Shown: piece by piece, positions 31,910 to 62,819 of the stretch
How the letters are laid out: the number at the start of each line of letters is the position of its first letter
Position numbering within the stretch: the stretch's first letter is position 1
Program-made: the position numbers and the translations under genes
From: Kondoa subrosea
Taxonomy: Eukaryota
DNA length: 64,000 nt
Direction: 5' to 3'
NCBI GenBank assembly: GCA_039545335.1
Contig: BCIN01000007.1
Span: 806,001-870,000 of the forward strand
The notes under the pieces: model-generated
Databases searched by the model: none
Seen by the model: only the letters and a program-made list of their open reading frames with translations
What the model was told of the DNA's origin: nothing

Positions 31910-33491
31910 CTATGATCTGTAGTCGGCATTGATGGCGATATATTCCTAAGAGACAGGTTAAATCAGACAGAGCTAAGCCAGAGTTTCACGCGAATTATAC
32001 GAACCTTGCTAAGATCACATGTATAGCTGAGTGCCGGAAGATTAGTCCTGTCCAGTTTGACTGACCAAGGGACTCACTACGCGGCCTTCTCTTTGCCTTG
32101 ACCCATTTTCACTTGAATGTGAACATTCTCTTGCTCCAAAACTTTCCTCGCCCAAATTTCATCTACTCCATCGACTGGTTCACCATCCACCAGAAGTTTC
32201 ATCTCCTTCCCATTGGTCTCGCCAGCACTTTGATCAATAAACGAGACGGAGACTTTGGTTGGGTCGATAGTGAAATCTTCTGCTTCTGAATAGCCAACGG
32301 CGCAAAGTACACGTCCCCAGTTGGCATCTGCTCCATGAACAGCACATTTGAGCAAGGTGGAAGTAGAAATGGTGGAAGCGATATGATGAGCGATTTTGTA
32401 CGAGGGACATTCCTAGAAAAAGAAGAGAGAACCGGCTAAGAGTTTAATTGACGGTAAAAGTCACATACACTCACTTCAACGCTAACAGTGATGAATTTTG
32501 TAGCTCCTTCACCATCCCAGACCACCAGTCCAGCCAATTCAGTTGCGAATTCGGTAAGCTGATCTCTGAATTCTGTCCAGCCCTCTTCACCTTCCACTAT
32601 GGTATCATATCCGTCCCAAGCAGCTCCGTTTGCCAGTGCTACAACCGTGTCGTTAGTTGACATATCTCCATCCACGCTGATGGAATTGAATGATCGTTCC
32701 ACAGCATAAGTTAAAGCCGCTTGCAAGGCTGAAGGTTCAATAGCTGCATCTGTAGCAATCATACCGAGCAGAGTTGCATGTGGTGGACCCATATTTGGGT
32801 GAATCATTCCAGCACCTTTGTCAATCCCAACAAAACGAATAGGTTGTTTTCGACCAGGTATAGTACATTCTTTAGTTCGGAGTTTTGGGAAAGTATCGGT
32901 TGTCATAAAAGCACGAGCTGCTGCATCCCAAGATTCGAAAGACGACGAAAGTGTAGGTAGACAGGAAGAGCGAAGGGAAGGTAAAATTCGATGCATCGGT
33001 AGTTTTTGACCAATGACTCCTGTTGACATGACCAGAGTGTTCATTTTGGGTAGGTTTTGTGATGCAGATGGGTTTGAGTTGAAGAGATCATTGACAGTGT
33101 TGGCCATTGCCCAAGCATCTTCTAATCCCTTGCTACCAGTAACAGCATTTGCACAGCCAGAATTGACCACTATAGCTCTAGCTGTTGGACTCTCCTTGAG
33201 TACAGCTTTGCAGACTTGAACAGGTGCGGCTTGAAATGCATTTTTGGTGAAACAAGCTGCGGAAGCTGTTGGAAAAGGAGAAGAAGAGATGATGAGACCG
33301 AGATCCAGTGATTTAGGATTCTTCTTAACACCGCAATGCACACCAGTTGCTAGGAAATGTCGAGGGAAAGTCGGAGCTGATTCCGCCGTCAAAGTGAGTC
33401 GCTCTTGCTTGGTCTGACTCGACATAGCGCGCATGATAAGCTTTCCCGTCTGTTGAAGCCGCTTGCAATCCCTCAACTGCTGCAGAGCCAT
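31910..33491 (-). CDS. ARG7: Ornithine acetyltransferase / glutamate N-acetyltransferase ArgJ, mitochondrial
   Basis: FTKNAFQAAPV, VNSGCANAVTG, STGVIG, FMTTDTFPK, KGAGMIHPNM..ATLL, VDGDMSTNDT, DGEGATKF, DANWGR, YTCDLSKEYIAINADYRS*. Confidence 0.96.
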
Positions 33492-34357
33492 TTCCTGATT
33501 TCTTTAACTCCAACGATGACTCGAAATATAGCAATTGCTTGTGACTGCCTGCCTGCTTCCGCTTGCTTCGACCTGTCCTGTAGCGTCTCTTATCTTGAAA
33601 TCGCGGAGCGGATCAACAGCTTCAAGCTCAAGTCGTGCTTCGTGATCAATCAAGTTCATTTCTTGAATGACTCAAAGAACACTGCCGTCGGGACCGGACA
33701 AAAGCCGCAGAGCTAATCTTGAAGCGACTTTGCGATCTACTTTCCAGTCCAAAAGCTGCCGCTCTTTGGCAATTGTTCGTTCCTGCTTCATACTGTCGCA
33801 TCATGCACGAATGAAGCCTCAGCAATTGCACTGATAGTGGCATGCAGTCAGTCGTCCGCCTATGGCTCTGATCTGCTAGACCAGCCTTTCTCAACCTTTA
33901 GCTGATTTGGCTGCGAAAAGATTCTCTGATATTCTGGTTTTTCGGCTCGACCGTGTCTGCCTGTCGATAGTGCTCTTGCTCTGGCTTTGGAAGCTTTCTG
34001 AGCCCGCACCTTCTTAACATAGGAAGATTCCACATGGTCTCACGATTCCATGCTTTTACCCAATCGCCAGCCCCACACAAACAGCAATCTGACCGCTTAA
34101 GATTGGAAACTACATCACTGCCAAACAGCAGTGCTCTACAGTAGTACAATTGTCGATCCGAACGCGTCTTGCATCTGTCGGGTCTTGGCTGTTTGGCTAT
34201 TTATACGTTCGCGTCGGTAAATGTTTCTGGGTCCATGATATCTGGCGTAAACAGAAGAAAGAAGACACAACAGCAACTTTTTTGTTCTTATCCATCTTAC
34301 TTGACCATCTTACTTGACTTCATTCGCATCTCTTTCTTTGGAACTATTGATCAGACC

Positions 34358-36502: not shown

Positions 36503-39500
36503 ATGTCTGAAGCTCTTTCCATCGAGGATTGCATTGAAGGCTTAGCTGACGGTAAAGTACTGCAATGTGCTTGACATTCGCCTGTCCAAGCTTACAATTG
36601 CATCTGAACAGATCAAAACACGTACCCTGGCCTTGTCTGAGCTCCGCAGACACTTTGGCAACAATAGAACGGTTCAAGAGCAACCCAGCAAATCATGGAA
36701 CGATGTCTTCGTCGCCTTGTTCGATATGTGCAAGATTGAGCGTAATATCATCGCGAAGAAGCCAAAGGATGTGCCTGCTGCGGTTCTAAGGCGTTTGAAC
36801 GATGCGACTTCTGCTATTCGCTGGCTCATCGAAAGGACAGCACCTTTGCTTCAGCGCAAGACAGTCAAGAAACTCCTCAGCAGCATCTTGCGTGAGATAG
36901 TCTTTGGTGGTCAGGTTTATGATGCTACCGCTTTGGATTACATCAAGGCTCTTCGTCACCTGTTGGCTCATCCGCCGCATCTGGAGCACCTGGAAGAAGT
37001 CACATGGCTTGACTGCGTACAAATATGCTATGGAGCAGCTATGTCAAGCAAAGTCACACTCCTAGGCGATGTTTGGACTGGCGAAACCGATGTTCAGCTA
37101 CCGGAAGAAGATCTTAGCGATGTATACGATGATCTAGCAGGCACAAGCGATAAGAAGCGGGGCAAAGCAACAGCTTCCTCTAACCTGGCCACAAAACGAT
37201 CTGGTCAAGAACTTACCGAAATCTTTACTGTTCTTGCCTATCTCTTTCAATCGCGAAATGCTTCCTTGGTCATTCTTCCCAACGCAAGTCAGCTCACTAC
37301 TCGAATAACTCATCTACTTCATCTTCTATCTCCTTCGATCTATTCCCCAGAGACAACAGCTCATCTTCCTCTCTTGCAAGCTCTAAATGCACTTTTATCA
37401 CAGACCGATCTTAACGCTTGCAGCATGATGACCGAAACAGGCCCTCTCATCTGGACTCTATTGACAAGGCTTTGGAACGTTACAAGAAGCATGTCAATCA
37501 AAGAACAAGTGGTCATCGCCTTATTAAGACTTTCGCCTTCTGTTTTCACCGAAAACGATGCTGAGAGGTTAACACCTGAATCTTGCGCAAGAGATTGCTG
37601 GGAAAGGTTGATAGGTGAACCTGAAGCTCGTTTCCGAATCGAACCTTTGGCAATGGAACATCTTCGGTTCAGTCAACTATCTCAAGTATCCATCTCAAAG
37701 TCAATTTTTGCTGAACAAGTATTCCAAGCTGGTACTTCGGGGTTCACAAGTGCTCATGCTTTAGCTTGGGCGACTTTGGAGTTAGCTGCGGATTGTTTGC
37801 AAGTCTTGTTTGTGGGAAGCGATAAAGTGGTCGCAAAGGTATTGGACAGTCCAGGACCTAGCAAGCGCAGGAAGGTGAGTTGACACCTTCTTGTAGATGA
37901 AATGGCTGATTTCAGGTGTGATGCAGGTGGCAGATGCGGTTGACGAGTTTCTTAATTCGCTTCAGTCTACTTCAACCTCAGCTGCAACTGGCGCCTCGGC
38001 TGAAATATCGCTGGCCTATCGTCTCCAAATCTTGCTATTCTTCATTAGTCGGCATTGGGAAACTCTCCACGAAGCCTTGCAACGTCGCATTTTTCAGATC
38101 CTTCTTGCTTTAATTGCACACGATGAAGCCTCAATTCAAGCGTGGACTCTCCTCTGTATCGCAACTCTGATTCCTCGAACCGGAAGCGTTGCGCTGGGCC
38201 AGCCGACCGATTCAACCACTTTTCAACGTCATACATCGCCGTCAAAATCAAACAAGAGCAAGAGCGCTGAGGCTCCCTTAACGGATTGGGAACATATCTG
38301 GCTCACCTGTCTGCGCAAACTGTCGAATCCTCTGTTAGCGAGACCAGCTGCTTATTGTGCCTCACTTCTTCTGAGTTCTTCCTCTTTAACCGAAAACGAG
38401 GGCAGGGTGTATCGAATAGGCCGCAATCGACTGGTTGGCGATCTAGAGCCACTCTTCAGAGATCTTGCTATTCAAGGACCCTCGTTTCCCAGCGATTCCG
38501 TCTGTTCCTTTTTCGTTGCGTGTTTGGACTTGGCGAAAGATGATGTTGTCATGTCAAGATTGGATCTGCCAGAGAAGGTGTACGGATGGCTATGTAATGG
38601 TGTAACTTGGCGACCTACCGCCAAGAAGGATTCTGCTATCAAAGGTCAAACGGTGAATACCTCAGAAATGCTGGCTTTACTCTTGCAAATCACCGTTGGT
38701 CAGCATGCATGCTTTGCCTTACAAGACCTTACTCCATCAGTACCTCCTACTTGCGAAGTAACTCGGGCAATGCTGGAATTGCAAACAACTCGACCCATTC
38801 GTCGCTTCATCTATTCAAATGAATTACCATCCGCCCTGCTAGTGCCAGAGGCTGAGCAAAACCACTCGCCTCCTTCCACTCTGCCAGTCTTGCTGGATGG
38901 TTCAGCTTCAGCAAGCATAGCAAACCGAATTTCCGCATTTCTGCAAAAGCTTTTGGACAATCAGACCACCTGCTTGCAGACAGTCTCTGAGACTGGAAGT
39001 CATCCTAGCTATACTCTTGAGCGAATACGCCGACTTTTGCAATTGTGCTGCATCACAGTCTTGTTTGAGGGAGCTTTGGCTTGTACTCGACCCAAATTTC
39101 CAAGACTAGCTTTTCTTTCTGTAGCCAACGCACTCACTCAGATAATCGCTCCTGCTGCATCGAACAAGTGGAAGACAACGGAGAAGGCAGAGCTCTTCAG
39201 CGAGTTGCAATCCATCTTTGCTCCGTTTGCAGTCAGCCAAACACCAATCGATGTCTATTCTGGATTGGTTCCACCTGGGCTTGCAAGTATGATTCCCCAA
39301 GCTGTCATTCGTCGACACGTGCAGCCTCTACTCAAACGATCAGCAGCCCCTGTTGCTCTCTACGAGATTTTACGGAAAGCTTGGTCGAGCTCGGATTTGG
39401 CGGAATTACTGGACAGCGGTGTCCTCTACACTTTTCTGGAAGCCAATGTATCTGGTTCGGAAACGGCCGCTGAAGACATTGTCATGGCTACGCAACCTGC

Positions 39501-42500
39501 AGCTGCTTCTCAAAAACACGCGCGAATGGATCTTGACGACTCAGACAGCGACGACGACTTTGGTGGCAAAGTTCGAGAAGGAGGAACTTCGACAAACAAA
39601 GTTCGGAGCGGCGGCGCGTCAATTCTAGGCGGCAACGCAACCTCAATCAATGACCCCAATCTACAACCTCCTGCTTATGCGGCTTCTTTCTGTATTCGCA
39701 GCGTCATGTGTGGTCTCATAACTCTTCCGTGGTTGAGAAAGAGCACGCCAACATCACATCAAGCTTCTCAAGCCACTCAAGTAGTCTCGAAGGACTTCTG
39801 CGAAATGCTGGAAGCATGTCCAGACGAGCGCATAGTGGTAGTCAGCAAGTCTCTTTTGGATGCAACCCAAGAAGGTGCACCGAGTATCACCTTGAATGAG
39901 GCAGACATGATTATAAGTCGAATTGGCGATGATCTGATTAGGCGTTATGAATTCGCTCGCGCAGAAGAACCCGTGCAGTGTCTGATTCGTTTGCTGATGC
40001 AAACGCAACATCTCTGGGTTCACGAGTCGCCTACTAATGCAGACTACCGAGAAAAAGCCCAAACAATGTGCACTTGGTTGACAGAGATGCAGGTCAAAAA
40101 GCGTTTGCCGTCTTGGCGAGTGCGGATAGACTTACTCTACCTACTGGATTCTTTCATTCGGACCGATTCAACGGAAGCATCCTGGGGAGTCAACTCTCAA
40201 GATCATCCAAGGGATACTCATGGCAGCAGAATTCTGCCACGCAAGCTGGTCACTCTCATGATACCAGATCTAGATATCAGAGTTCGATTCAAGGTCGCTT
40301 GCTCGACAGCGCATGCGATCGATTACATCTATCAAGTATCGCAAAATGATGAAGTCGACAGTTTCTTCCAATCTGTTCTTCGGGAACTGGAAGTCAGACT
40401 GTCCATGCATGAGCAGATGCTTACTCGCTGCCTCTGTCTGGCCAACCTTATGATCTGCTGCGCACGTGTCCGCTACCAATCATACAACCATCTTATGATC
40501 GCTTGTCAGCACACGGAAACCTACGAAAGACATATTGCATCTCTTTTGGAAGGCGTGGCTGCACGACTAGGCTTAGCTGATATTCAAGCGCTGTTCGTCA
40601 TTTACGCACCTCAGTTCGCATTCACCAACTCCAGCGTGGACCCCCTTGAACTTCCAGAGTCTGTATGCGGCTTCTCCACCAAAAGAGCAAGAGCGGAAGC
40701 TGTATTCGATTCTCTTGCTGGTATTACCGCTGCTGAAGATGATCCAGACAAGTTTCGGAGACTGTGCGAGACTGTCAGCAAGACGCCGGAATCAGCGTTG
40801 TCGCAATGTTTCCCCGCATATCTTGCACATGCTCTCACAGAGATCGCTTCAGCAGCAGACCTTGAGATCGGTGAAGCCTCCATGCAGCAGGTCTACAACA
40901 AGGCCAAGAAAAGGTATCGAGAGTGTGATATCGCTACTAGTGGCATCTCCTTTGAAGAAATAGTACATCGCTCAATCGATACTATTGGCACGACTATCAT
41001 ATCGATGCTGTACGAGTCCGACTGCTCCGCTTTCGGGCCAATAAGGGTCGCCTTGGCAAAGATCGACACACGAGACGGCGGAGATGATGCTGCTAGGATG
41101 TTCTCTGGCATCTTGTCCAAGACGTCTGCAAATCGTATTGAAGCTCATGGGGTCAATCAATTCTCTTCCACCATTATTTACACTCTATACTGGCTTGCCA
41201 CTAAAGTGACAACGTTGCTTGAGCCAGTTGCTTTACAAAGTATGTTCTGTCAGATCTTCGTCAAGATCAATGAAAGCCCCTTTGTCGACAACCAGATTCG
41301 GATGCTCGCAGCTTTGGCAGTCTTGATGACCCTTGGACGGCATTACGTCAGAGATCCAGTCATTTTCAAGCGTCTGATGCAAGGCTACGCCGCACTTTAC
41401 AAGAAACCCGATCTCGCGTATGCAGCTTGGGCTGGTATTGCTTATCTGTTGCTGTTACACGAGCACTTTTCTCTGTACAACGATTGTCATGCCTTTCCCT
41501 TCATTGCAGTCGATATTGTAGAGACAATTGAAGAACACATGCGAGGCCCAGATCAAGCTCTTGGCAAGGCTAGTCAAGAACATTTACTACTTTTGCGTGG
41601 ACATGCTCAAAAGCTCGTTAGCCGGACCGACGAAAAAGGGTCCGGCGCACGGAGACAAGGCTTGCAGATCTGTTGCTTTGCAAGCGGGCTCAATGACTTG
41701 GCGTCAAGCTGTTCTGCTTCTGAATTACAAAGTATTCTGCAGTCGGCCCCAGCTGATTGGGATACTCGCTTCGCCATGGTCACATTTCTAGCTGCAAATC
41801 CGATCAAACAGGATCTCACTATTCCTGATATGGACAATATCCTCTGGGATCTGCTCAGCTCTTTGTCAAAAACATCGAATGTATCGCAAAGCACCAGCGA
41901 GGCCTTCGTTATGCTTCTGTTACGGGATCACGGTCGCATCACCTTACCGAGTCTCAAGTCTGCATCAACTCAGACAAGTATCTGCTCACAAGAGGGGGAA
42001 TCGGGTATTCAAGCAGACCTGGTGCGGGTTGTGTCGACATTTCTGTCTCGCCATGATATATCTCTTGTTGGTCTAGCTGTGCGATGTTTACGAAGCATTT
42101 TTGCATCTGCCGACTGGACCGTGTTCAAAACATACCTTGATCGGGTTGGGGACGATACATCCGAGCTCGCTCTAATTGCAAACACCTCCTTACGTCATAG
42201 TCTGAGCGTTCAGTCAGCCCTCCCATCCAATCCAAGCTTACAAGATGTATTGAAGTCGCCAAAGTTGAATGATGCAACCGTTCACGCTCCTTGGATTACA
42301 GCCTTGACTCAAGCTCTGCTACTCTCGCGCAGCGGAAAGAAGTCTGACTTTTATTTCCACTTGAGACCTCTATGTCAGCAAGACGAGCAATTCGCAGAAA
42401 AGATTTTGCCTCTTCTCGTGCATTCTTTGCTGTCGACAGATGAAAGCACAACGAGGCCCACTGCAACATCTAACGTACTTACTGCCTATTTCACAAGCCT

Positions 42501-45500
42501 TCTATATAGCAAAGGGACATCTCGAAGCAGTCTCTCGGTTATTGTAGAGACGGTTATGTACCTTCGAAGATTCCCTCAGGTTAATGAAGCGAACACTGGT
42601 ACCCCTCCATCACTCAGCGGAGACGCCTGGTTGGGGATTCCTTGGACACTCGTGGCTCATGCTGCTCTTAAGGTGGAAATGCCAGCCACGGCAATCTTGT
42701 GTCTAGAGTTGACGAGGGAACATGGACTGGCACCAGAGCGAAGATTGCTCAAGCTGTCTCCCGAGGAAGTAACGGCGTATATTCAGAAAGCGCAATCCCT
42801 AATTTACGCGACTATCGATGAACCCGATGGATTCTACGGCATTCAATTCATGGACGCTACAGATGGTCTGATACAGAAGTACAAGCATGAAAATAGGATT
42901 ACTTCAACATTTGAGCTTATTGGAGCTCAGAACGAAGCCTCTTTCGCCGCAAATGACAAGCGATCGATGGATAATTCTGCTCTGATTCAATCACTATCTG
43001 CTTTTGGCTTCGCTCACTTAGCAATGTCAACTCTCCAGGGCGGTCATGCCAATTCCCAGGCACTTTCGCGTTCCGAGTTTCTGAATTTGGCTTGGAGAAC
43101 AGAAAACTGGGATCTTCCTTCTCCGCTGTTTTCCGACCGCAAAGACTCTCAGCAAACCATATATTCGTCGCTTCGCAATATCCATAGAAGCAAGGATCGG
43201 AAAGCTACAATCGCTCATATCTCCGAATGCTCCAGAATCCAAACGAATCGGCTATCTGGCATTCGACAAGAGAATCCTCTGCCCGATTCAAAGGCTTTGC
43301 AAGCTCTGATGGCGCTGTACGAGATGAGGGTTTGGCTCAAGCATGATCCGACCCAGAATGGAAGTATCAGCAAAGAGATATCACGGCACTTCACTTCTCT
43401 AGCTTCGGAATTTCAGTCAGTCGTTTTCACTTCCAGAAGAGTCGTGAGCTGACCACACTGTAAATCAGATACGCCGATGCCGAGCTCATTATGGCGATCC
43501 GTGTCAACCTGTTACAAGGCGTCCGGCGATCCGAACAACGCATGCAATTTGGCGACCACAAGTCCGATCTTCTATACCAAGCAACGCAACTCGAAAGTCT
43601 ATGTTACTTGAGTATGAGCGAAGCTGCTCGCCGGGCGGGCCACTTGCAAGTCTCTCTCAATTGCGTTTCAACGGCTGCAACCCTTTTGCGAGAGATCGAC
43701 GATGTCCAAGACAGTAGCCTACAATTGAAGCTCACGGAAGAGCTGGCCAATGTCACGTGGAGTAAAGATGAACACAGCTTGGCAATCCGTACACTCGAAC
43801 AACAGATTAAGGGGTCGCCAAATGGTGCAGAACGCGGGCCTATTCTCGCTAAACTTGTGAGTGAACATGTACCTCCCATCCAACCATAGCTCATAGCCTG
43901 TCAGGGTGCTTGGTCAGCTGAATCTCGCCTGCTCGACGCACCGCAGATCAAGAGCCAATACTTTGAACCGGCACTATCAGATACGCAAGCGTCACAGAGC
44001 GCCAACATTGAAAGCAACGGAGACATCTATTACCAATACGCCATGTTCGCTGATCGCCAATTCCTCTTCTTGGACTCGCAGAAGGCTGACATCGCTCGGC
44101 TGGAGATACGACACTCTCGGCGCAAAGTTGACCTAGAAGAGCTCAGGCGTCGAATGCGTAACAGTCAAGATCCGAACCATCATCAGCTCAGTAATTCCCT
44201 TACAGAATCCGAAAAGGTGTTTGAACAAGACCGTATCAAGTTGGAAGCCTACCGCAGCGAACGGGACTCCTTTCTTCTCCTTGCAATCCGCATGCTTTGC
44301 TGTGTTCTGAAGACCTACGATCAGCATGATGATGTGGTGCATAGATTATGTTCACTCTGGCTGGCTCACTCTACCGATGAGCAGCTGAACAAATTTGTGA
44401 AAGGCGAGCTCGACAGCGTTCCCAGCGCGAAGTTTGCTTTTTTGTCTCACCAACTCTCGGCCCGTCTGACCAGACAATCGCAACTGGCATCAGCTTTTCA
44501 AGCCAACATCCGCAGTGTGGTGTTACGTCTCTGTCTAGATCATCCTTTCCATATTCTCTACCAGCTCTATCCTCTTCGACAAGGTGTTTCGGCTGCAACT
44601 GTTTCTTCAAAATCGCGGAGAACCAGTCACGAACCTTCCGCACAGGTCAGTCGCGCGTTGGCAGCAGAAGATATCCACAACCAGTTGCGTAAAGAGCCAA
44701 AGATGCAGGCCGTCTTGCAAGAACTCAATTATGCCTGCGAAGCTTACGTCGAATGGGCTGCCTTTGATCTGAAGACAATTGATGCCTTCCGGAAATGGAC
44801 AAAGAACAAGAAGTCAAACCCTGAACCTAAAATGCCCGACGATCTGAAACTTCGCAGGGTCCGCGATACTCAATTGCCTGTGAGCACAATAACATTGCAA
44901 ATCGACAAGACTTGTCGCTACGATCAAAGTTATATCCCCAGAGTTTTGAAGTATCAGAACTCGTTCCGAACCGCGGGAGGGGTCAATCTTCCGAAGATAT
45001 CGAATTGCATTGGTTCCGACGGTGCTGAATATAAGCAACTAGTAATTGATCGGCGTTTGCGCATTCAGGCTGAGCTGATGTCCGGTGATAGTTTAAAGGA
45101 GGCGATGATACCCGACAAGATGCAGTGATGGAGCAAGTCTTCACTCTCGTCAATGACCTACTTGCCAGCAATGACGAGACGCGTAGACGTTCGCTGAAAG
45201 TTCGGACTTACAAAGTAATACCCTTGACGGACAATACTGGCCTGCTGGAATTTGTAGCAGCGACTGCTCCAATATCCGAACTTACTGCTGATTTACTGAA
45301 GAGGTGAGTCTTTGACTGGAATCTGTGAGTATAGCCCTGAGCAGAGTTACGTCCAGCGTTCGACCAACGGATTGGAATTACAACAAATGTAGAAGTGCTA
45401 TGCAGGCTGGAGAAGAGAAAGACGTCGATGCGAAAGTAACCGTTCTACAAAACATTTTGCAAAACAATCGGCCTGTGATGCGACACATCTTTTACCAACG

Positions 45501-46318
45501 TCAACCTCAAGCTTGCCGATGGTACCAGATGCGCTTGAACTTTACCAGAAGTGTCGCTACGAACTCGATTGTCGGCTATATCTTAGGAATCGGCGACCGG
45601 CATACTTCCAATCTGCTATTCGACACTGAGCAAGGGGAAGTTGTCCCTATCGATTTCGGTGTAGCCTTTGACTCTGTAAGTATGAACTGATATTATGTTG
45701 CTTCTGTGGTTCTGATGCATCAACAGGGTACTCGACTTCCTGTCCCCGAATTGGTGCCGTTCCGGTTGACGCAAAACTTTGTCGACGCTTTTGGCATGTC
45801 AGGCGTTGAAGGCGTGTATCGAAGATGCTGCGAAGAAACACTTCGAGTGCTGCGAGAGAAATCTGGTGTCATTATGACCATTCTCGAAGTCTTCAAGTAC
45901 GATCCTCTACAAAAATGGACAGTTTCAGCAGACAAAATCAAGCGCGTCCAGAACTCTCAAATGATAGCTACTGCTTCTGCTGCTACCAGTACGCGACTAA
46001 GCAGTTCTCGTGCTGGTTCGCAAGTACTTCAATTCGATGCGAGCGGGGAAGATGATGAAGATGTTCCCGCTGATGCAGCTCAAGCTTTAGCTGGTGTTTC
46101 TGAAAAACTATCAAGCTCTCTGAGTGTCGAATATAAGGTCAACGAGCTGATTCAGCAAGCGATGGATTTGCGAAGGTTGGCTGTGATTTTCAGGGTGAGC
46201 GATATAGCACAGATCCTTGTCCGGTACTGACATTCTCATTGTATAGGGCTGGCAACCGGTGAGATTCAGTCTGACCATATGTCCTGACATATCCCTGACT
46301 ATCAAACAGTACATCTGA
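36503..46318 (+). CDS. TEL1: Tel1/ATM PI3K-related checkpoint kinase
   Basis: TAN-like N-terminus (GLAD..KTRTLALSEL), FAT region (IDEPDGFYG, AWRTENWDL), kinase motifs AGGVNLPK, KGGDDTRQDAVMEQVF, GIGDRHTSN, IDFGVAFD, PELVPFRLT, and FATC end GWQPYI*. Confidence 0.95.
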
Positions 46319-53056: not shown

Positions 53057-55002
53057 CTATACAAGTCTTTTCCCACTCTCTGTACCTTTTGTAGGTCGCT
53101 CACCCAGAGAGGAGCCTAGTTTGCTCAAAGGAAAGCTGAAAGTGAAGGCCTGCTGAGTCTTTGCTTCTGAAGCTGCTTTCGGTGGTGCAGACGCTGGAAT
53201 GTTCCCAACACTAGATGCTTTCGCTTGGGCAGCCTCTTCTGTGATTGAAGTGACTTGGGCAGACTGTTCTGTGATTGGAGCGACTATACCAGCTGAGGGT
53301 TCCGAAGATGGATGAGCTTGGCCGGCTTCTTGAACAAGTACTTCAGGCAATGGCTGAGCAACCGCTTTCTTCTCTTCTTCCGCTATTTGTTTCAGCACTG
53401 AATCCAGCTCGCTCTTGATTTCTTGTATGCTAGCATTGAACGCCAACTTTTCCTTTTCTTCTATCCTCTGCTTTTTCTGCATCGCTTCCTGCTCTAATTC
53501 TTGCTTTGTTGGCATCTTCACTCCGCTTCCAACCACTTTTTGCCATGTAGTTCCTTCAGCCTTTAGTTGTTGCGTCACTTGATCTTTCAGCTTTCTTGGT
53601 AAACCCACACCTTGATAGCCTAAAGCAGTATATAGCTGAACGAAGCTGGCTCCCGCTTTTGCGTAGTCCAGAGCATCTTGACCTGTACTGATCCCTCCAC
53701 AACCGACTAGAGGTATTTTGCCAGCAGTCATTCGATACAATTTGGCCAAGGTCGAGAGGGACAGAGGTTTCAAAGGTGGACCTGACAGACCGCCTTGTTC
53801 CGTCAATTGAGGATCCGAACCAGCTGATTCAGGTCGAGTGATGGTAGTATTCGAAACAATGATACCATCAATTTTGGTTTGTTGAGCTGCTGAAGCGATA
53901 TCGCCTAATTCATCTTCATCCAGATCGGGAGCAATTTTGACTAGTATTGAAGGTTTATAAGTAGCTGTAAGATTGTTTCGTGCTGTTACGACGGCGGAGA
54001 GGAGTTCTTCCAGCATCCCCCGCTTTTGCAGAGCGCGAAGACCTGGCGTGTTTGGCGAAGAAACGTTTATGACAAGAACATCGGCATACGGCCCTAATTG
54101 ATGTACACCATTTACAAAGTCGTCGATAGAGTCGGGTGCTGAGATCTTGTTCTTGCCTAAGTTGATTGCTAGAACTTTACCAGAGTGTAATGAACGTGGA
54201 GAAGAAATGATATCTGGAAGTTGAGCATCTGCTCCTTGTGGGGAGTTGAGTAGTCTAGAGATGGGTCGAGGGTCGGGTTCTGAGCCTGCTGCGTAAATAG
54301 GAAAGAGGGAGGAAGGCAGAAGGTGAGAATTTCGTTCAACGAAGCGACGTATTCGGGTTCTTAATCGTCCTAATACAGCAAGATGCCCTTCCGAATTGAA
54401 GCCGTATCGATTGATGACTGATTCTGAGGAAGGTAGGCGGAAGAAGCGAGGTTTGGGATTCCCAGGCTAGTAGAAAGATGAGCTGTGACGGGAAACCCAA
54501 GAGCTGAAACTTACCTGAGGTTCAGGCGTTATGCTTCCAATCTCTAGGTAGCCAAAGCCCAAATCAAAGATGCCATCTATAGCTTCAGCATGCTTGTCGA
54601 AGCCTGCTGCCATGCCAATGGGATTGCTAAATTGTCTACCCCAGAGCTGTTCTTGCTTTCAGCTACTGGCTTAGTGTATGAAAGACGACATACTTCGAAC
54701 GCTAGTACAGGATCATCTGATAGTCTGTCCTTGGGTGCCAGACCACTTTCAAGAACTTTGATTGCAATCTTGTGAGATTTCTCCGGATCATCTGCTGTTA
54801 GGGCGTGCAGGACAGGTATAGCCAGCCATTCATGAATGCCTGCTCTTGTGTCGGATGCGTAGAGAAGGAAACCGCCCGTGAAGATTAGGCCAGTCCAAGT
54901 CCAGAGAGTAGAGCTTAACCGCGAACGAGGAGCCCGTCTGGTGAATAGCGAACGTTGCTGTGGCCTGAGCAACAGTGTCGGCCTGAGACGAGCTGCTTGC
55001 AT
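53057..55002 (-). CDS. URA9: Class 2 (quinone) dihydroorotate dehydrogenase, mitochondrial, with a long C-terminal extension
   Basis: Presequence plus TM segment, [81 protein letters not shown]. Confidence 0.95.
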
Positions 55003-55789
55003 CAATGTTTTGGCTGTCGGAAGTTGAGCAATATCGTGTCGACAGAACTTGATAAGTGGTTGCAGTCCTGCATGACCTGGGTTCTTTCTTTTCCTGATAT
55101 TCGTGCCATATGTGCTGAATTCAAATGGACACTGTGCAAGCTGCAGCGCTTCGAGCTATGTTACAACCTTTTTTGTCTCTTGCATATCATGTCTGCTTTA
55201 TACAAGTTCTGCTTCCTCTGCTTTGCGTCTCGTCTATGTGCACGTCACCGTCCTACTGGTCAGAAACTCGCAACTCGCTTTATGCTTAAATGCAGATGGC
55301 TCACCCATTCCGACCCGCGGGTGCCTACCTGATAGAGAGATCCGAAAACGAAGGTACAGCGCAGCACACGAGGAACTTGACGCGAGATTTTGGCTCTCCT
55401 CCGCATGCAGCATTCCGAACGAGGTCACTAAAAAGGGTTCGCGATGTCTCTCTTCGACTACTAGATATCTATCTTCTGCGACACCAAGCTCTAAATGCCG
55501 AAAGCTGGATTTGTTCCAGATGTCGATAAGGAACTATCGACTATAAAACTGTCCGATTCAGCTGGGTTTTGCGCAATTGATTAGAAGGCGCTCAGGATTG
55601 ATGCCGATAGCATTGAAAGATTTAGGAGAAACACCCGAGGTAGCATTGTCTAGTGTAGTATCATAAGACATTCCACTACGCATCGGGGCTCAATAAAGCA
55701 GACATGACTACAAATCAGTGAGAGCGAAGCTGCTACAAGCTCTCGCACAATTAAAGGACAAAACTCTACAACTTTGCTCTCGCTAATTG

Positions 55790-57825
55790 TCAATATTTGC
55801 CCTGAGTGTATCCGCACTCTTTCAAAGCATTCTTGAGCGCTTCGATGATCTGAATGACTTTGCGTTAGATCGCTTAGGCATAGAACGAAAGGTTGACACT
55901 GACCTTGTCCACATCTCCCCTTTCTGGGTTGACTACTGTTGTACCCATTGTTCCGATACGGAAGTAGCCTTTTCGGGAAGACGCCAGACATCAGATTATT
56001 CTTCTGTATTAGGCAATGAACATGCTCACGCTCTTTGATATCTTTGTGAAGACCAGCAGCAACGGTCACGTTCTGTGCTCCCATCTTAGGAACGATATCT
56101 AAAGCTTTCATACCCTCGGGAGCGTATATTGCCTTTTCGCGCATTAGCTAAACTGTCATTTCAAATGTCATTCATAGCTCACAGTCATTCCGTTAGCGGC
56201 TGCTTCAGCATCAACAGGCACCATGGTCAGCCCTAGATCAGAAATAGCCTGCTTCAATTTCTTGCTTGTCTCCTTGTGCATTCTGAAGCGATCCTCGATT
56301 GAGACTGAGCCTTCAGTAATGATCTTCAACGATTCGTGAAGTGCTGTTACGAGTTGTACAGCAGCTACAAAGAGAACGTCAATCAAGCATATGCGTTACG
56401 AGTTGATGACTTACGAGTAGCGAAATAAGCGGCCATGCCTTAATTACCATGTCATACAATATCGAGACAAGCAAACAGACTTAAAGCTCACCCTTATCGT
56501 AAGCTTGGTGAATTGGTAGCCAACGTTTCCATGATGCAAAGTAGGAAGTGACTGGTGTTTTACGGGTTTCAAGAATCTTCAAAGCCTTTTGAGATACACA
56601 GGTGACCGATAGTCCTGTCACATAACAGTTCAGCAATTGTCAAGGTATAGGCCATTTGATGATCGCATACCAGGAGGACATCCGAGACCCTTTTGCGAAG
56701 CTTGACAAATCGTAAGCTATTGAATATTGAATAAATCGGCACGAATTCAACACACCAGCAATGACTACGTCGATATTCCACTCATCGAAGCGAATCTCTT
56801 CACTTGCCAAGGAGCAGACACCGTCCAGAATGATCAAAGTATCAGGTGAGACGCGTTTGACGAGTTCAGCGACTGGAAACCCACAACTTAGGTGCAGTCT
56901 GTATGGAACAGGATTGACTTACTAGCTTTTGCGTCTGCTAAAACGCCGGTAGCTGAAAGCACCTTCAATTACAGCGATAAATTCCCTCCATATTGCACTC
57001 ACAGGTGTCGACATGCGTGAAGGTCAGCACTATCGCGTGATTTAGCAAAAACCTTATGTTCAGCCTGCATATTACTTACGCTTGAACTTCTGCTTGTTCA
57101 GAGCTTCTTCGATTTGCTTGAGAGTAGGACGATCACCAACAGGTGCTTTTACTTGAGTGACTTTGGCTCCATATACTTCAAGACAGTCGGCCTGATCTGC
57201 TCCTCAGCTCATTTCCTACTCAGCACTCCAGATCACCCACGAAGCTATCTCCGAAGTAGCCAGAGTTTACAACAAGCGCATGCTCGCCCGGTTCCACAAG
57301 ATTTGAGGCCACCATATCCCAACCTAAGGCAAATACTTCAGACCTAAAGTGAGCGACGAAGAACAGTTCTAACCTAGAGTTCCACTTCCAGCAACGATGA
57401 ATGGCTGACCGTCCTTGGTATACAGCAATTTTCGAAGCCTGAAGCAAGCAGAAAGGGAACAGAATGAGCGATTTCGATAGGACATACTCAGGAGCTGTTT
57501 ACTGACATGGCCATTGTATTTTGAAACGTCTTTGCGAAGCCAGGCGAAGTGTGCGAAACTGATGGAGACTATTACTTCGCATTGAGCTGACTAAATCCGG
57601 TGCAGAGCATCTCCAGCTGACCGCATTTGCATACAAGACGCTGTCTACGACCTCAATAGGGCCAGGGATGACCAACAGCGAATGATCGGCTTGCTTGAAA
57701 TTCGACATTGTTTTGTAGGCGGATGAGCTGAAGAGGCGACTCGGTCGAGCGAGCAAGGATACAGGAGATGCAGTGGAAGGTCTGCTCAGGAAAGTCGTGG
57801 TCCGAAGTGAAGCAATTGCTTTCAT
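55790..57825 (-). CDS. AGX1: Alanine-glyoxylate aminotransferase (class V PLP); multi-exon; two in-frame ATGs (57825, 57708)
   Basis: LLVIPGP, FIVAGSGTLGWD, SGYFGDSF, THVDTSTG, LDGVCSLASEE, YFAT, GLHKDIK, YFRIGTMG, last exon IIEALKNALKECGYTQGKY*. Confidence 0.93.
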
Positions 57826-57959: not shown

Positions 57960-60900
57960 TCACTCTTGATCCAAAGCAATATCCGTTGTTTCCAGAGATC
58001 GTTCCCGTTCACGAGATTGGCCATCAAAGTACAAAGACGCCTGGGTCTCTTGATCATCAACATCCTGCAGAGGTGGACCACTGTCGAAGTCGTAATCGTC
58101 GTCTTCAGCTCTATAAGTCGAGTATACTGATCTTGATCCTTCATCCGGATAGCTGAAACCCCAAGAAGGCTCAGGCATGCCAAATCCATTGCCAAAACGT
58201 GATAGATCATGCATGCCAGCGAATTCGTCTTCCTCCGAATCGTCATCTTCTGGCTTGTAGTATACGCGATTACCTTTATATGATATAATAGGTTCAGAAC
58301 AATCCGACACGACAAAGAGAGAAGGTCCTCACCTTGCCAATCATAGTGATTGCGGTATCGATCATCGCGAAAGCGGTCACGCTGAAGCTTGACTCCATCT
58401 GCGCAACATCTCAATATGCTGGCTCGAGTCTTCGTGAACAGGAAATAACCGACCCATTCCGTAATCGTAGTCATCACTGTCATACCAATGTCCGGGTGTG
58501 CCTTCCCCAGTTCCCAATTTTATTGTACCTTGACCATCAGCTACGTCTTGTACTGGTTGATCTGGCAAATGCTGACCGATAGGTCGGAAGTGAGCAGCGG
58601 CAAGAGACCCAGAAGTGGTATATTCTTGGTATGAGGGTGGACTTCTTTTATAGTGAAGGGGAAACAGGAATGAGGGTATATTCTGAAGGTCTTGATGCGC
58701 CTACTTACGAAGTGCCTTGAGCTTCGTTGCTGTCTGCACTATCTCTACGACTTTTCGCGAAGTAATTCATCTTGCCTATGGCTGGAGCGTCAACAGGCGG
58801 CAAGTAGTCTTCTGCTTGCTGGTCGACCTTATCGTCATCGCCATTTTCTGATGGCTGGGCACTGGCAGCGCGAGATTGGTTGACAATCTCTACAGTCTTG
58901 CCGCCGAAAGGTTGGTTGCTTCGTCTGCGATAGAAGAGCAGATACGCAGCAGGCGACTATCTCTAGGTGTCAGAACTTATCAAGCTCAAACAGGCAAAGC
59001 TCAGGCTTACTTTGACAGTTCGTTCCGGACTGGTAACGGCGGAAGCAGAAGACTGGACTGAAGTCAGGTTATATTGAAGCAACAATGATTAGGTTCTCAC
59101 GTCATCAAAATTGTACCAAATACCATCTTCCGAGTTCTTTGCGTAGGCAGTATAGTGCCCGCCTGGCGAATAAGTTGGATCAGGAAGTCTACCAGTGAAA
59201 GCAAACAAGACAAACCTCCTAGACCGCCGAAGTGGTTATCGACCGCAAAGAGATCGTAAATCATCGGTTCATCGGTCACTTTGTCTGTTTGAAGTATCTC
59301 TTTGCCTTCTGGTGTAGTGATGAGTCGTTCAGCTAGCTCTCGGTGAACGGTTCTGTTCGATAGATCGAGACCTTCTAAGGGGAAGTCGACCAGGTCGGAA
59401 ATCTTGTCTCTCGAATAGCGACCGGCGCTGAATCGTTTGAGATGAATGACCAGGATGTCGGGCAACGACCAGAGGTCGACCTGTTTTGTCGCTTCTTTGA
59501 ACTCTTTGCAGGTTGGGCAGTACCTGCATTTCCGAATATAAGCCCGATATCCCCGTTCTTTCTAGAGATACTCACCAGGTATTGTCAATGTCAAGTTTCT
59601 CTTGCCTACTGAATTCTGTCAGACAAGAGTCCAAGGTAAGATCGGTCTTCTCCTTCTTTTCCTCGGTTTGAGCAACTGAAACAGCTGTTTTGTGGTCCCA
59701 GCGCCGAACGTCAGGGCCGAAGAAATAAGCTACTGCGTCTGCACTCCATTCGCAAACGATGCTATCGCCGGTACGAATGACGGGATGAGCCTTGACAGGA
59801 GCAGCTGAAACTTGAAGGGCTGGGTCCACATCTTTGTAATGATCGTTCAACTCTTTGTCGTCCTCAGCAGTCGGTTGCACAAAACCGCCGGGAGGTTGAG
59901 GTGTTGAAGATAATTGTCTAGCAGCCTCTTCGCTTTCTCTTGCGATACGATCCAGCAGCGGGACTCGAAGACCAAATTTATCATTGACAAGACTGTGGAA
60001 AGGGAAAGCATGTTTTGTTTCGCCATTGATCATAATCTTGAAAAGATTGGGTACTGGTTGAGCATCAATTGGAATGGGATCGTAGGTCTGGGTTTCCACA
60101 GCTGTGGGAGCTGTCTTTGATTCTGCCGAGGCAGAGTCGTCCTGCTGAAATTCAGTTATAGGTACATCGCGGTCAGTATCTGGCTTGTCGAGCTCCTCTT
60201 TCACAGCTTCTTCTACGGGATCTGGCTTTTGGTACATATCTGCGCCTCTGAGAGATCTTCCAGCGAATTGTTTGACTAAAGCAGCGTAAACAGCTTCATA
60301 AGAAGTCGCTTGATCGCTGGTCATAGCCAAGAAGACAGGAGTACCAATGTATTCCATAGTAGTCGATGTTGATGTTCTTGAAATAGGCTTTTCCGAACCA
60401 GCATAAACTGGCACGAGTGCCCGATCAGCTTTAGCATCTTCTTCCATGTCCGAGTTTTCGGGTTTCCGGCGGAAGCTCATCTGCGAATAGGCGAAAGGAA
60501 GTTCTTGCAAGATAACAAAGTCTGCTGGACTCGATGCGTAGGGTTCGGATTTGATTTCCTCCGATGCCGAGTCTTCGAGCCATCTGTACATCTTGCCGTT
60601 CCAGCTTTCGAACGCTATCAGCTGTAAAACCATCGAATAAGTACAAGTTGAATTTTCGGATGAGATCGCACCTTAGCTGGGTCTAGATCCAATAATTGCG
60701 CAACGTGTTTCTTTAGCTGACGAGTGGTAAAGTTTTTCGGCAGTGTTGCTATCACTCGCGAAAGAGGCTTATTCGGATCCAGATGAGACACAAAGACAGC
60801 ACCAGACCATTGTTTGGGCGGCATAGGTAGAGTCAGCGAGGTGAAGGCGTCGAAAGTTATAGAGACCTGTAAACGGGGAACATGTTGAATCAGTGTTAAA

Positions 60901-62819
60901 AGCCCCAAATGGTCAAGGCTTACCTTGTTGCAATCCGGACAAATGACAGTACTTCGGTACATGCCTTGAAACAAGTCAACAATCACACTATCGTTTCTGA
61001 GCTTGAACTTGTCCCAGCTCTCGATGGCCATCTTCATCATTTCTAGATCTCCGCCGCCTTCCCATTCAGGTTTGACTGTAGCTGGTTTCTTATAGATCCG
61101 ATTCAAATCCTCATGCAAGCCATCAAGTAAGAATGAGATGAATTCTTGCGAATCTTGCTGATTCCAGCCAATGAACATCGGGCGAAACCGACCAATCATA
61201 GTCTTGAAAGCTCGAGGAGAGACGCTGGTATCTCTACCAGACCAAATTTGCTTGATGAGATCACCATAGGCTTCTGCTACAGCTCCAGACATTCCGAGCG
61301 GATTGTCTTTGTTGATTTCTTTGCGCCAGGCAGGAGCTGCGAAGCCCTTGAGCCGACAGTAAGACTATCTCGGGAAAAGACATACAAGTGAAGTAGGTCC
61401 GTAGTTCAGTAGTATTGCTCAAACATTGCAAAGCAGAGTTCATGAACTGTCAGTTGGACGAAGAGCGTCAGCTAATTTCAGCTGTAACTGTCGACATCAA
61501 CTGACGCATGTGTTTCCCAGATTCCCAAGGCCTGTCACGCCTTTTGTCCGACCGCTTGAACTGCTTCTCGTAAAAGGTGCAGTGAATTTATTCATCAATC
61601 CTCCTCCTCCTCCTTCAGCAGGTTTAGGTGAACGAGATCTTCCATTCCTCATGTTATCTGATGATTTTCGTGCCGTCAATTGATTGATCGCAATACCGTT
61701 ACTGCTGGAAGAATTCAACTTGTTGAAATAGTTTTGACCTCCACTAAAATTGGGTGCAGCAGCAGCAGCAGCAACAACAGGCGCGATGATGACAGGAACA
61801 GGAGGTTCTGTGACCAGCCAATTGCCTTCGGGTGTTTTCCATTCTACAGCAAGTTTGGTAGACATGTCGAGTTGAGCATCTCGCAAAGTGGTATCATCGG
61901 ATTGATGAGCTACCATCTCAAGTTTTTCAGACATAACTTCATCTACTTTGATAAAACCTTGATGCGTGCTGTTCTCCAATCGATAGACTCGGAATTCAGT
62001 TTGCTGCGGTTTGTTGAAATTGATCCATACCCCAGTTCGGAAAGCTTCTAATGTATCTGCTTGGGACAATTCGATTGTCTTTTCTTCACTGTTCTCAGGC
62101 GTGGCATCGTTCGCGACTACGGTTAAGCAGGTGAAGCGAGGAGGGAAGAATTCGATTCGATGTTCTGTTTGCATGCTTTCGCCATACGAAATAACTTTGC
62201 GAGGTAGATCTACGCTTTTGAGTCCATACCATTTCATGAGTAGATTCCAACCTTCCTGCGGAACAAAAACAGCATCTTCGTTCTCAACCGGTGCTTTGGC
62301 TAAATCGTTGTAAGGAGAGTTGGGTACCACAAGAGGAGTGTTATCAATAGGACCGACTGAGGCCATGGTAATATCTGCAAATTCTTTCTCTGCTTGCTGT
62401 CCAGCATCAGACGCGCAAGCTGCAGACCATTTTCGATACCAGCTTCTTGCGACAATGTAGCGAGTTTCGCCCTCTACAAGCGGAGCCTTCATTATGGGTT
62501 CCATTTGGGCCAGTTGGGCAGCTCCGGAAGGTAAATCATCGTCAACTGTCATGCTGCTAGATTCGCGAGAGAGCGCAGAAAGATTGTCAGGAGCGTCTGA
62601 AGAGCCAATGTTGAGTTGCTCCACGACCATAGCACTTTCTGACAGCAAAGATGTGCCAGTATTGGAAGATCCGCGACTCAAGACAGATCCCATAAACTGC
62701 TGAGAGCTTGCACTTGGTTCTTCTGATGCGGCTCTTTTGTTTGAAGATTCAGTGTCGTCAGAGGCCAGACTTTGAGAGCGGCTACGCTTCAGACTGGCAG
62801 AACCGCTGGACGAGGACAT
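57960..62819 (-). CDS. UBP12: Ubiquitin C-terminal hydrolase, Ubp12/USP4/15 type (DUSP + USP domains); multi-exon
   Basis: DUSP ([15 protein letters not shown]), Cys box [43 protein letters not shown], His box [31 protein letters not shown]. Confidence 0.92.

Follow-up and report, generated by a model that had tools for sequence, protein, structure and literature searches.

A putative readthrough extension ending in a peroxisomal signal behind the stop codon of a fungal alanine–glyoxylate transaminase gene

The AGT gene

The 64,000-nt stretch of Kondoa subrosea contig BCIN01000007.1 analysed here (positions 806,001–870,000; referred to as the window and numbered from its first base) carries on its minus strand a gene for an alanine–glyoxylate transaminase (AGT) of the AGX1 type, a class-V aminotransferase, and our subject is the short open frame that follows its stop codon. 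An earlier note on this DNA, made from the letters alone, had proposed that reading through this stop exposes a type 1 peroxisomal targeting signal (PTS1). The coding region (55793–57825, minus strand) has 15 exons in a gene model built by eye and checked by script. Exons 1–8 are at 57825–57622, 57568–57507, 57438–57374, 57323–57241, 57191–57080, 57029–57003, 56952–56923 and 56872–56756, and exons 9–15 at 56700–56671, 56614–56492, 56438–56415, 56364–56183, 56132–56030, 55968–55904 and 55849–55793. The 14 introns are 49–68 nt long, and every one of them runs from GT to AG. The product has 428 codons, from the ATG at 57825 to the TGA at 55792–55790, and its C-terminus reads ...IIEALKNALKECGYTQGKY.

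The earlier assignment of this minus-strand gene to AGX1 is borne out by its homologues. A query with one 60-residue AGT exon returned four proteins, among them the metagenome protein P0001, which has 95% amino acid (aa) identity to the spliced window AGT over 342 columns and matches Pfam PF00266 (Aminotransferase class-V, Aminotran_5; E 9.6e-24, 84.5 bits against a cut-off of 21.5). A Pfam scan of the three largest single AGT exons gave no families, because the exons are too short. The named homologues (59–69% identity) are called alanine--glyoxylate transaminase or pyridoxal phosphate (PLP)-dependent transferase, and one, from Violaceomyces (P0111), is labelled 'putative AGX1'. The model contains the segment ...ASQKGLGCPPG..., in which Q150 and K151 do not vary across the 22 AGT proteins of an alignment, A1; K151 is presumably the PLP-binding lysine.

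The spliced window mRNA aligns with an intronless metagenome contig, L001, over 1187 nt without gaps (80.5% identity), and the alignment ends 1 nt past the second of two in-frame stop codons. Because the spliced model aligns in this way to beyond the second stop, we consider the splice junctions, the last exon and the reading frame to be right.

The sequence behind the AGT stop codon

On the minus strand the AGT gene ends GGC AAA TAT TGA CAA TTA GCG AGA GCA AAG TTG TAG. The first stop codon, the TGA at 55790–55792, is the one proposed to be leaky, and it is followed at +4 to +9 by the hexamer CAATTA (55784–55789), which fits both CAR-YYA and the yeast pattern CA(A/G)N(U/C/G)A. The putative readthrough extension comprises seven codons, Q-L-A-R-A-K-L (55769–55789), of which the last three (55777–55769) encode the tripeptide AKL, and it is closed by a second stop, TAG, with A as the next base (55766–55768). 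The end of the open reading frame (ORF) and its in-frame continuation therefore read ...ALKECGYTQGKY, stop, QLARAKL, stop. The sequence, coordinates and frame given in the earlier note are exact, with TGA at 55792–55790, TAG at 55768–55766 and -ARAKL in frame between them. We defined a strict PTS1 as a C-terminal [SAC][KRH][LM]; a published form of the pattern is S/C/A-K/R/H-L (PMC3338719). The main-frame C-terminus, GKY, is not a PTS1 and the AKL of the extension is a canonical one, as had been claimed and as the spliced model bears out.

CARYYA is the tobacco mosaic virus (TMV) signal and CARNBA its yeast counterpart, and these readthrough hexamers are active with both UGA and UAG; a human-cell reporter with CARYYA showed about 15% readthrough in one context, and in human cells the signal was about equally active behind UGA and UAG (PMC4132726). 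In yeast the leakiest combination is UGA with C at +4 (PMC8087045), and the most permissive positions are UGA, C at +4, A at +5, A/G at +6, U/C/G at +8 and A at +9 (PMC8087045, Table 2), all of which match the window UGA CAAUUA and the CAAUCA of a relative, L002. Pomoviruses have UAG-CAA-UYA (PMC3159437). These reports agree with the earlier note, which had invoked CARYYA as a readthrough context and UGA-C as the leakiest stop, and CAATTA following the window TGA is indeed of the CARYYA rather than the CTA type. The note had also stated that the cryptic PTS1s of fungal glycolytic enzymes usually lie behind stops of the TGA CTA type, in agreement with the UGA-CU motif of Ustilago maydis, in which CU after UGA is enough for efficient readthrough and UAA and UAG perform worse, in a screen that covered TGA CT genes only (PMC4207609). 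Trp, Arg, Cys and Ser are mentioned among the possible insertions at UGA (PMC4207609).

Conservation of the extension

A scan of metagenome contigs with alignment A1 confirmed 436 relatives, and the locus results reported here are for the best 80 of these. A quick maximum-likelihood tree of 35 AGT proteins places the window AGT in a clade with L001, P0005 and L002 (support in the Shimodaira–Hasegawa-like approximate likelihood ratio test, SH-aLRT, 94), and this clade is sister to Mixia and Cystobasidiomycetes-like sequences (SH-aLRT 93). From this single-gene placement the organism looks like a member of the Pucciniomycotina, and one with no close annotated AGT relatives, since named proteins in the P0001 homologue list reach at most 69% identity to the P0001 query.

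DNA is available for two relatives in the clade, L001, the contig of P0001, with 95% aa identity to the window AGT, and L002, the contig of P0006, which is about 71% identical to P0001. All 14 introns are absent from both. L001 ends GKY TGA CAA TTA GCG AGA GCG AAA CTG TAG (QLARAKL), which shows that in a close relative the TGA and the extension are contiguous in the principal mRNA, and L002 ends ...VNSN TGA CAA TCA GCG AGA GCG AAA CTG TGA (QSARAKL). Common to the three sequences are the TGA, the C at +4, a CAR-YYA hexamer, the A-R-A-K-L residues and a stop at the eighth codon; in L002 this second stop has changed from TAG to TGA without moving, and the next base is A in all three. The check proposed in the earlier note, an alignment of the post-stop sequence in relatives, thus finds the TGA-C context and the in-frame PTS1 kept in both clade relatives with DNA.

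Just upstream of the TGA the main-frame C-terminus of L002 has diverged and includes a 12-nt insertion or deletion (indel), and in the alignment with L001 a 26-nt gap begins 3 nt past the second stop, after 1187 nt with none. Past the extension the window, L001 and L002 can hardly be aligned in their 3' untranslated regions (3'UTRs; alignments A2 and A3). Within the extension, comparison of the window with L001 by the Nei–Gojobori method gives 3.0 changes in 5.0 synonymous sites and none in 16.0 non-synonymous sites; over the last 1140 nt of the coding sequence (CDS) the proportions of synonymous and non-synonymous differences (pS and pN) are 0.661 and 0.052. The extension thus evolves like coding sequence, its changes relative to L001 being synonymous only. 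The sole aa change among the three sequences is Leu to Ser in L002 (TTA to TCA), and the hexamer still fits CAR-YYA. Between L001 and L002 there are no differences in the 5.5 synonymous sites of the extension, although their CDSs are far apart.

We also note that L002 has a switch of frame within the conserved N-terminal region (about positions 1–160), with ...YANASPSV in one frame and SHTSPGFAK... in another; the switch is probably an artefact of sequencing or assembly.

Hidden PTS1 sequences in other fungal AGT genes

Among the 80 surveyed loci, all of them fungal by best matches (56–100% identity to fungal AGTs), 75 have a C-terminal alignment and a stop codon. A strict PTS1 ends the in-frame post-stop extension at seven of these 75, or at seven of the 61 whose extension is closed and at least 3 aa long. 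In the wrong frames after the same stops there is none (0/54 at +1 and 0/59 at +2, 113 controls in all), and in the window, where 108 mechanical ORFs reach 100 aa or more, not one of their stops is followed by an extension of 3–30 aa ending in [SAC][KRH][LM] or by CA[AG]N[TCG]A. The PTS1-positive loci are confined to one stop codon, with 7/20 at TGA and 0/55 at TAA or TAG (Fisher p 3.9e-5, a test that overstates independence because the 75 loci are related); with nine duplicate loci removed the counts are 6/18 and 0/48 (p 2e-4). All six of the TGA-C loci are PTS1-positive, four with CTA and two with CAA after the stop.

Outside the window clade, L043, an AGT cDNA contig nearest a Taphrinomycotina yeast (80% to a Savitreella protein), reads ...GYSPN TGA TGC CAG GCG AGG TCA AAG CTG TAG at 1260–1286, with the extension CQARSKL. 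The stop context of this hidden SKL is outside the classical leaky ones. L067 (1254–1295) and L075 and L079 (both 2609–2650) are near-identical and read ...GYTRH TGA CTA TAT ..., giving LYGGAP(I/V)SRARL; the L067 extension is LYGGAPISRARL. A fourth locus, L071 (2604–2630), reads ...GYNKH TGA CTA CAT ..., giving LHGGARL, and differs from L067 by an in-frame 15-nt indel with the ARL kept in both. These four loci have at most 61% identity to any of the 240 proteins compared, and all carry TGA CTA, the Ustilago-type motif. AGT stops with a hidden PTS1 behind them can therefore have either a UGA CUA or a CAA-UYA context.

By contrast, a strict PTS1 is rare in the main frame: three of the 120 annotated basidiomycete-type AGTs listed have one (P0035 SRL, P0060 AKL and P0114 ARL), and none of the 120 of ascomycete type. 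The three are from Sphaerobolus (P0060, ...AKQAKL), Amylocystis (P0035, ...ASRL) and Panus rudis (P0114, ...ARL at the end of a long tail); in Panus the annotated frame may have been carried across a stop codon or an intron. The Gloeophyllum AGT P0078 ends in the main frame with ...SKKL, a near-PTS1 (KKL).

A predicted helix in the 3' region

The region behind the stop is also predicted to fold. The 113–140 nt from the stop were folded separately for the window, L001 and L002, and in each minimum free energy (MFE) structure GAGAGC (+12 to +17, within GCG AGA GC) pairs with a GCUCUC in the 3'UTR. In all three, a second run of pairs then joins the K-L-stop codons to the bases immediately 5' of GCUCUC. 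In the window the 5' arm lies at 55766–55781 on the minus strand (+12 to +27 from the stop), overlapping the A-R-A-K-L codons and the second stop, and the 3' arm, GCAGCUU.GCUCUC, lies in the 3'UTR at 55720–55735 on the same strand, as placed by the MFE folds and alignment A3. The sequence GCTCTCA is the sole block common to the three 3'UTRs (window 55720–55726, L001 1459–1465, L002 1264–1270). The stem begins after an 8-nt spacer from the stop, is bulged with 12–15 pairs, and has a distant 3' arm and a loop of about 30–60 nt.

In the MAFFT alignment A3 each arm falls in the same columns in all three sequences, and the helix can be written as 16 pairs of columns 12–27 with 90–105. In this register 41 of the 48 cells are standard pairs (85.4%; window 14/16, L001 12/16, L002 15/16), against 29–48% if the 3' partner is slid by 1–3 columns. 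Eight pairs are invariant, four have changed compatibly on one side, and two have changed on both sides (G-C to A-U at +21 and A-U to G-C at +26). This covariation is not significant: with just three sequences, 69–192 of 500 shuffles do as well, and the structure was itself derived from those sequences. With the first 9 nt kept unpaired, the 120 nt behind the stop fold with an ordinary energy z-score in the window (-0.89) and L001 (-0.67) and a moderately low one in L002 (-2.56); unconstrained, z is about -2.5 in the window and in L002, with 1 of 200 shuffles as good in each. Among 64 sequences (63 loci and the window) folding z-scores do not separate PTS1-positive from PTS1-negative ones. Since folding energy is no discriminator, it is only conservation that argues for the helix, and on the three sequences compared we regard it as a real conserved feature. 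The complete synonymous identity of L001 and L002 in the extension fits an additional constraint at the RNA level.

An analogous stem of unrelated sequence is predicted in L043, in which CGAGGUC from +11 pairs over 7 bp with GACCUCG about 85 nt downstream. The TGA CTA loci L071, L075 and L079 have no long-range pairs at +10 to +24.

The N-terminal leader

The AGT product begins with a 39-codon leader (MKAIASLRTTTFLSRP...; 57709–57825, minus strand) that by composition resembles a mitochondrial presequence, with 4 R, 2 K, no D or E, and 14 S plus T. The first ATG (ATG1, 57825), with T at -3, lies two codons downstream of an in-frame TAG, and a second (ATG2, 57708) lies 39 codons downstream with A at -3. 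L001 has a leader of the same length (70–186) with 5 R, 1 K and 1 D, and its two ATGs have the same -3 bases as those of the window, T for ATG1 and A for ATG2. The two leaders are identical at only 12 of 41 aligned positions, compared with 95% in the mature protein. Similar N-terminal extensions are present in many basidiomycete AGTs of the homologue list. To judge from its composition the leader looks like a mitochondrial presequence, with a weak ATG1 that may permit leaky scanning to ATG2, and the -3 bases shared by the window and L001 suggest conserved leaky scanning and a mitochondrial AGT isoform. The leader, the helix and the combination of TGA CTA with a hidden PTS1 behind the AGT stops of other fungal lineages were not mentioned in the earlier note.

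Neighbouring genes

Directly downstream of AGT is a dihydroorotate dehydrogenase gene (53057–54658, minus strand), identified by Pfam matches to its long exons. The same approach assigns an ArgJ gene (32436–33503, minus), a ubiquitin C-terminal hydrolase (60618–61364, minus), the exocyst subunit Sec6 (7217–8113, minus) and a SNF2-family helicase (13984–14691, plus). A very large gene at 36546–46230 on the plus strand has ORFs of 445, 1851, 412 and 179 aa; it looked like a Tel1/ATM-type kinase, and the one piece of it scanned had no Pfam match.

Alternative explanations

The block behind the stop could be a 3'UTR stem-loop acting in mRNA stability, localisation or 3' end formation, with the AKL frame incidental and not usefully translated. 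Such an element accounts for the pairing of GAGAGC with GCUCUC and the second run of pairs in all three MFE folds, for the in-register pairing with its two compensatory pairs, for the invariant GCGAGAGC, and for the identity of L001 and L002 at all synonymous sites of the extension, which is beyond the needs of coding. It gives no reason, however, for a seven-codon open frame whose stop keeps its position through a change from TAG to TGA, nor for a strict PTS1 as the last three codons or a UGA-CAA-UYA upstream of them; unrelated AGT extensions end in a PTS1 without a helix (L071, L075 and L079), and the helix itself is energetically ordinary at the z-scores given above. We therefore think it unlikely that an RNA element is the whole explanation. 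The two readings need not conflict, since readthrough is known to be stimulated by a helix 8 nt behind a stop (PMC3159437).

The tail might instead be functionless today, either because a nonsense mutation cut off an ancestral PTS1 or because a random 3'UTR happens to read ARAKL. From codon counts we estimate that a strict PTS1 is expected in about 0.4% of random extensions, and a genome would therefore hold some hidden PTS1s by chance; the few basidiomycete AGTs that end in a true PTS1 (P0060, P0035 and P0114) would suit a relic. Neither version fits an extension that has been kept with 0/16 non-synonymous changes while synonymous sites of the CDS are near saturation (pS 0.66 against L001) and the 3'UTR beyond it can barely be aligned, nor the complete lack of such tails in the window ORFs (0/108) and the wrong-frame controls (0/113), and we regard coincidence or a relic as very improbable.

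Still less probable is exposure of the PTS1 by other means, through alternative 3' splicing or a frameshift that bypasses the TGA, or through TGA as a sense codon: alternative splicing does expose cryptic PTS1s in U. maydis GAPDH and Aspergillus nidulans PGK (PMC3798809), but L001 and L002, spliced at all 14 introns, still have the TGA in line with the extension, the only GT..AG pair read across the TGA (GTGCGG...TTAG) spans 35 nt, below the 49–68 nt of the introns, and lands out of frame, the AGT ORF has no internal TGA, the 1851-aa and 720-aa ORFs of the window stay open when TGA counts as a stop, the L002 extension itself ends with TGA, and fungi are without selenocysteine machinery (PMC4207609).

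Assessment of the proposed readthrough

We consider it probable, and well supported by comparison, that programmed readthrough of the AGT stop codon gives rise to a peroxisomal isoform. The sequences themselves show the features around the stop, their conservation, a substitution pattern of coding type and a recurrence in other fungal AGT genes; from these we infer the readthrough, its rate, the inserted residue, PEX5 binding and the localisations of the products. Several points weigh against it. The CU dinucleotide of the Ustilago motif is absent, since the window, L001 and L002 all have CA after UGA, and conservation within the clade is judged from only two relatives with DNA. P0005, a clade member known only as protein and lying between L002 and the window in the tree, ends ...AGYAKASA, so that the feature may not be universal even here. 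The surveyed loci are related, and the PTS1-positive ones amount to about three independent lineages. Finally, because the extension overlaps the helix, part of its nucleotide conservation could reflect RNA structure.

A model for the distribution of AGT

If programmed readthrough operates, most ribosomes would stop at the UGA at 55792–55790 and release an AGT that ends in -GKY and has no peroxisomal signal. A minority would decode the UGA by a near-cognate tRNA, in a context that is about the leakiest known for fungi (UGA, C at +4, CAA-UUA), and the helix starting 8 nt past the stop may add to this; whether it stimulates readthrough we judge about even. These ribosomes would add X-Q-L-A-R-A-K-L and then stop at the strong UAG-A. 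As AKL is a canonical PTS1, the extended fraction of AGT would be imported into peroxisomes by PEX5 and would convert glyoxylate to glycine there. At the other end of the mRNA the weak first AUG and the strong second one would probably split the product into forms with and without the mitochondrial presequence: starts at ATG1 would give a mitochondrial precursor, and starts at ATG2 with normal termination a cytosolic AGT ending in GKY.

A broader reading, which we put forward tentatively and at somewhat less than even weight, is that AGT is a recurrent client of readthrough across fungal phyla. In the Pucciniomycotina-like clade the signal would be bipartite and virus-like, combining a UGA-CAA-UYA of the pomovirus/TMV type with an extended stem-loop of the alphavirus/kelch type whose 5' arm is the PTS1-coding extension, and together with leaky scanning it would allow a three-way split between mitochondrion, cytosol and peroxisome from one mRNA. 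The Taphrinomycotina-like L043 (UGA UGC ..ARSKL, with a 7-bp stem from +11) would share this architecture in a different sequence, and a third lineage would use a plain UGA CUA.

Comparison with known systems

In animals AGT is a classic peroxisomal glyoxylate-detoxifying enzyme, and in mammals alternative start sites decide its destination and the main frame ends in a non-canonical PTS1, KKL. The window AGT resembles it in combining an N-terminal leader of mitochondrial type with a C-terminal peroxisomal signal in the same enzyme, and the distribution of mammalian AGT differs between species (PMC3798809, citing Danpure 1997); the window PTS1 differs in being canonical and behind a stop codon. 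In Magnaporthe oryzae AGT1 is reported to be peroxisomal, and the authors credit a main-frame C-terminal QKA (PMC3338719). The survey loci that end in ...GYQKA (L031, L041, L046 and L074) have a TAG stop and no PTS1 extension, unlike the window gene.

The established cases of a PTS1 exposed by readthrough are enzymes of glycolysis and the pentose-phosphate pathway in fungi, and LDHB and MDH1 in humans (PMC4207609, PMC3798809, PMC4359377). There is a likeness to U. maydis Tpi1, Pgk1, Art1 and Rpe1, which have a UGA and a short in-frame PTS1 extension conserved in orthologues, and for which dual localisation from one mRNA is described, as we propose for the window AGT; the difference lies in the context, UGA CU there and UGA CAA UYA here (PMC4207609). 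AGT is not among the clients given in the main text and seven supplementary files of PMC4207609. Human LDHB and MDH1 likewise have a hidden PTS1 behind a leaky UGA and a small peroxisomal fraction of a cytosolic enzyme, but the context is UGA CUAG and the cases concern animals and other enzymes (PMC4359377, PMC4207609). PMC4359377 mentions AGT only as a resident peroxisomal enzyme.

With the TMV/pomovirus CAR-YYA and the yeast hexamers the match is exact over six bases, CAA UUA in the window and L001 and CAA UCA in L002. The known CAR-YYA cases are viral replicase or coat extensions or reporters, whereas the window offers a cellular gene and putative organelle targeting; activity of the hexamer is known from plants, yeast and human cells. 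The predicted helix recalls the extended stem-loops of alphaviruses, several plant virus genera and Drosophila kelch in its 8-nt spacer, bulged stem of 12–15 pairs and distant 3' arm, and also in raised synonymous-site conservation, and it differs in its loop of about 30–60 nt compared with about 100–270 nt in the viral and kelch structures (PMC3159437). It differs from them too in being known from three sequences, with covariation that is not significant against shuffles and an unexceptional energy.

The full-text literature searched, which does not include most subscription journals, contains no description of a readthrough PTS1 on AGT; this is no proof of absence. AGT would thus be a new client enzyme of the readthrough-PTS1 class, set apart from the fungal cases already published by its stop context and perhaps also by a 3' helix.

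If the conserved hidden PTS1 acts as proposed, it would explain how some fungi put part of their AGT beside the peroxisomal sources of glyoxylate, in a form that is invisible to gene callers. It would bring a further class of enzyme into the readthrough-PTS1 group, and it would mean that fungi use a second leaky context, CAA-UYA, besides UGA-CU for hidden PTS1s. With its hexamer, spacer and helix, the region of about 110 nt would also provide a natural test case, in a cellular gene, of how stop context and RNA structure downstream act together.

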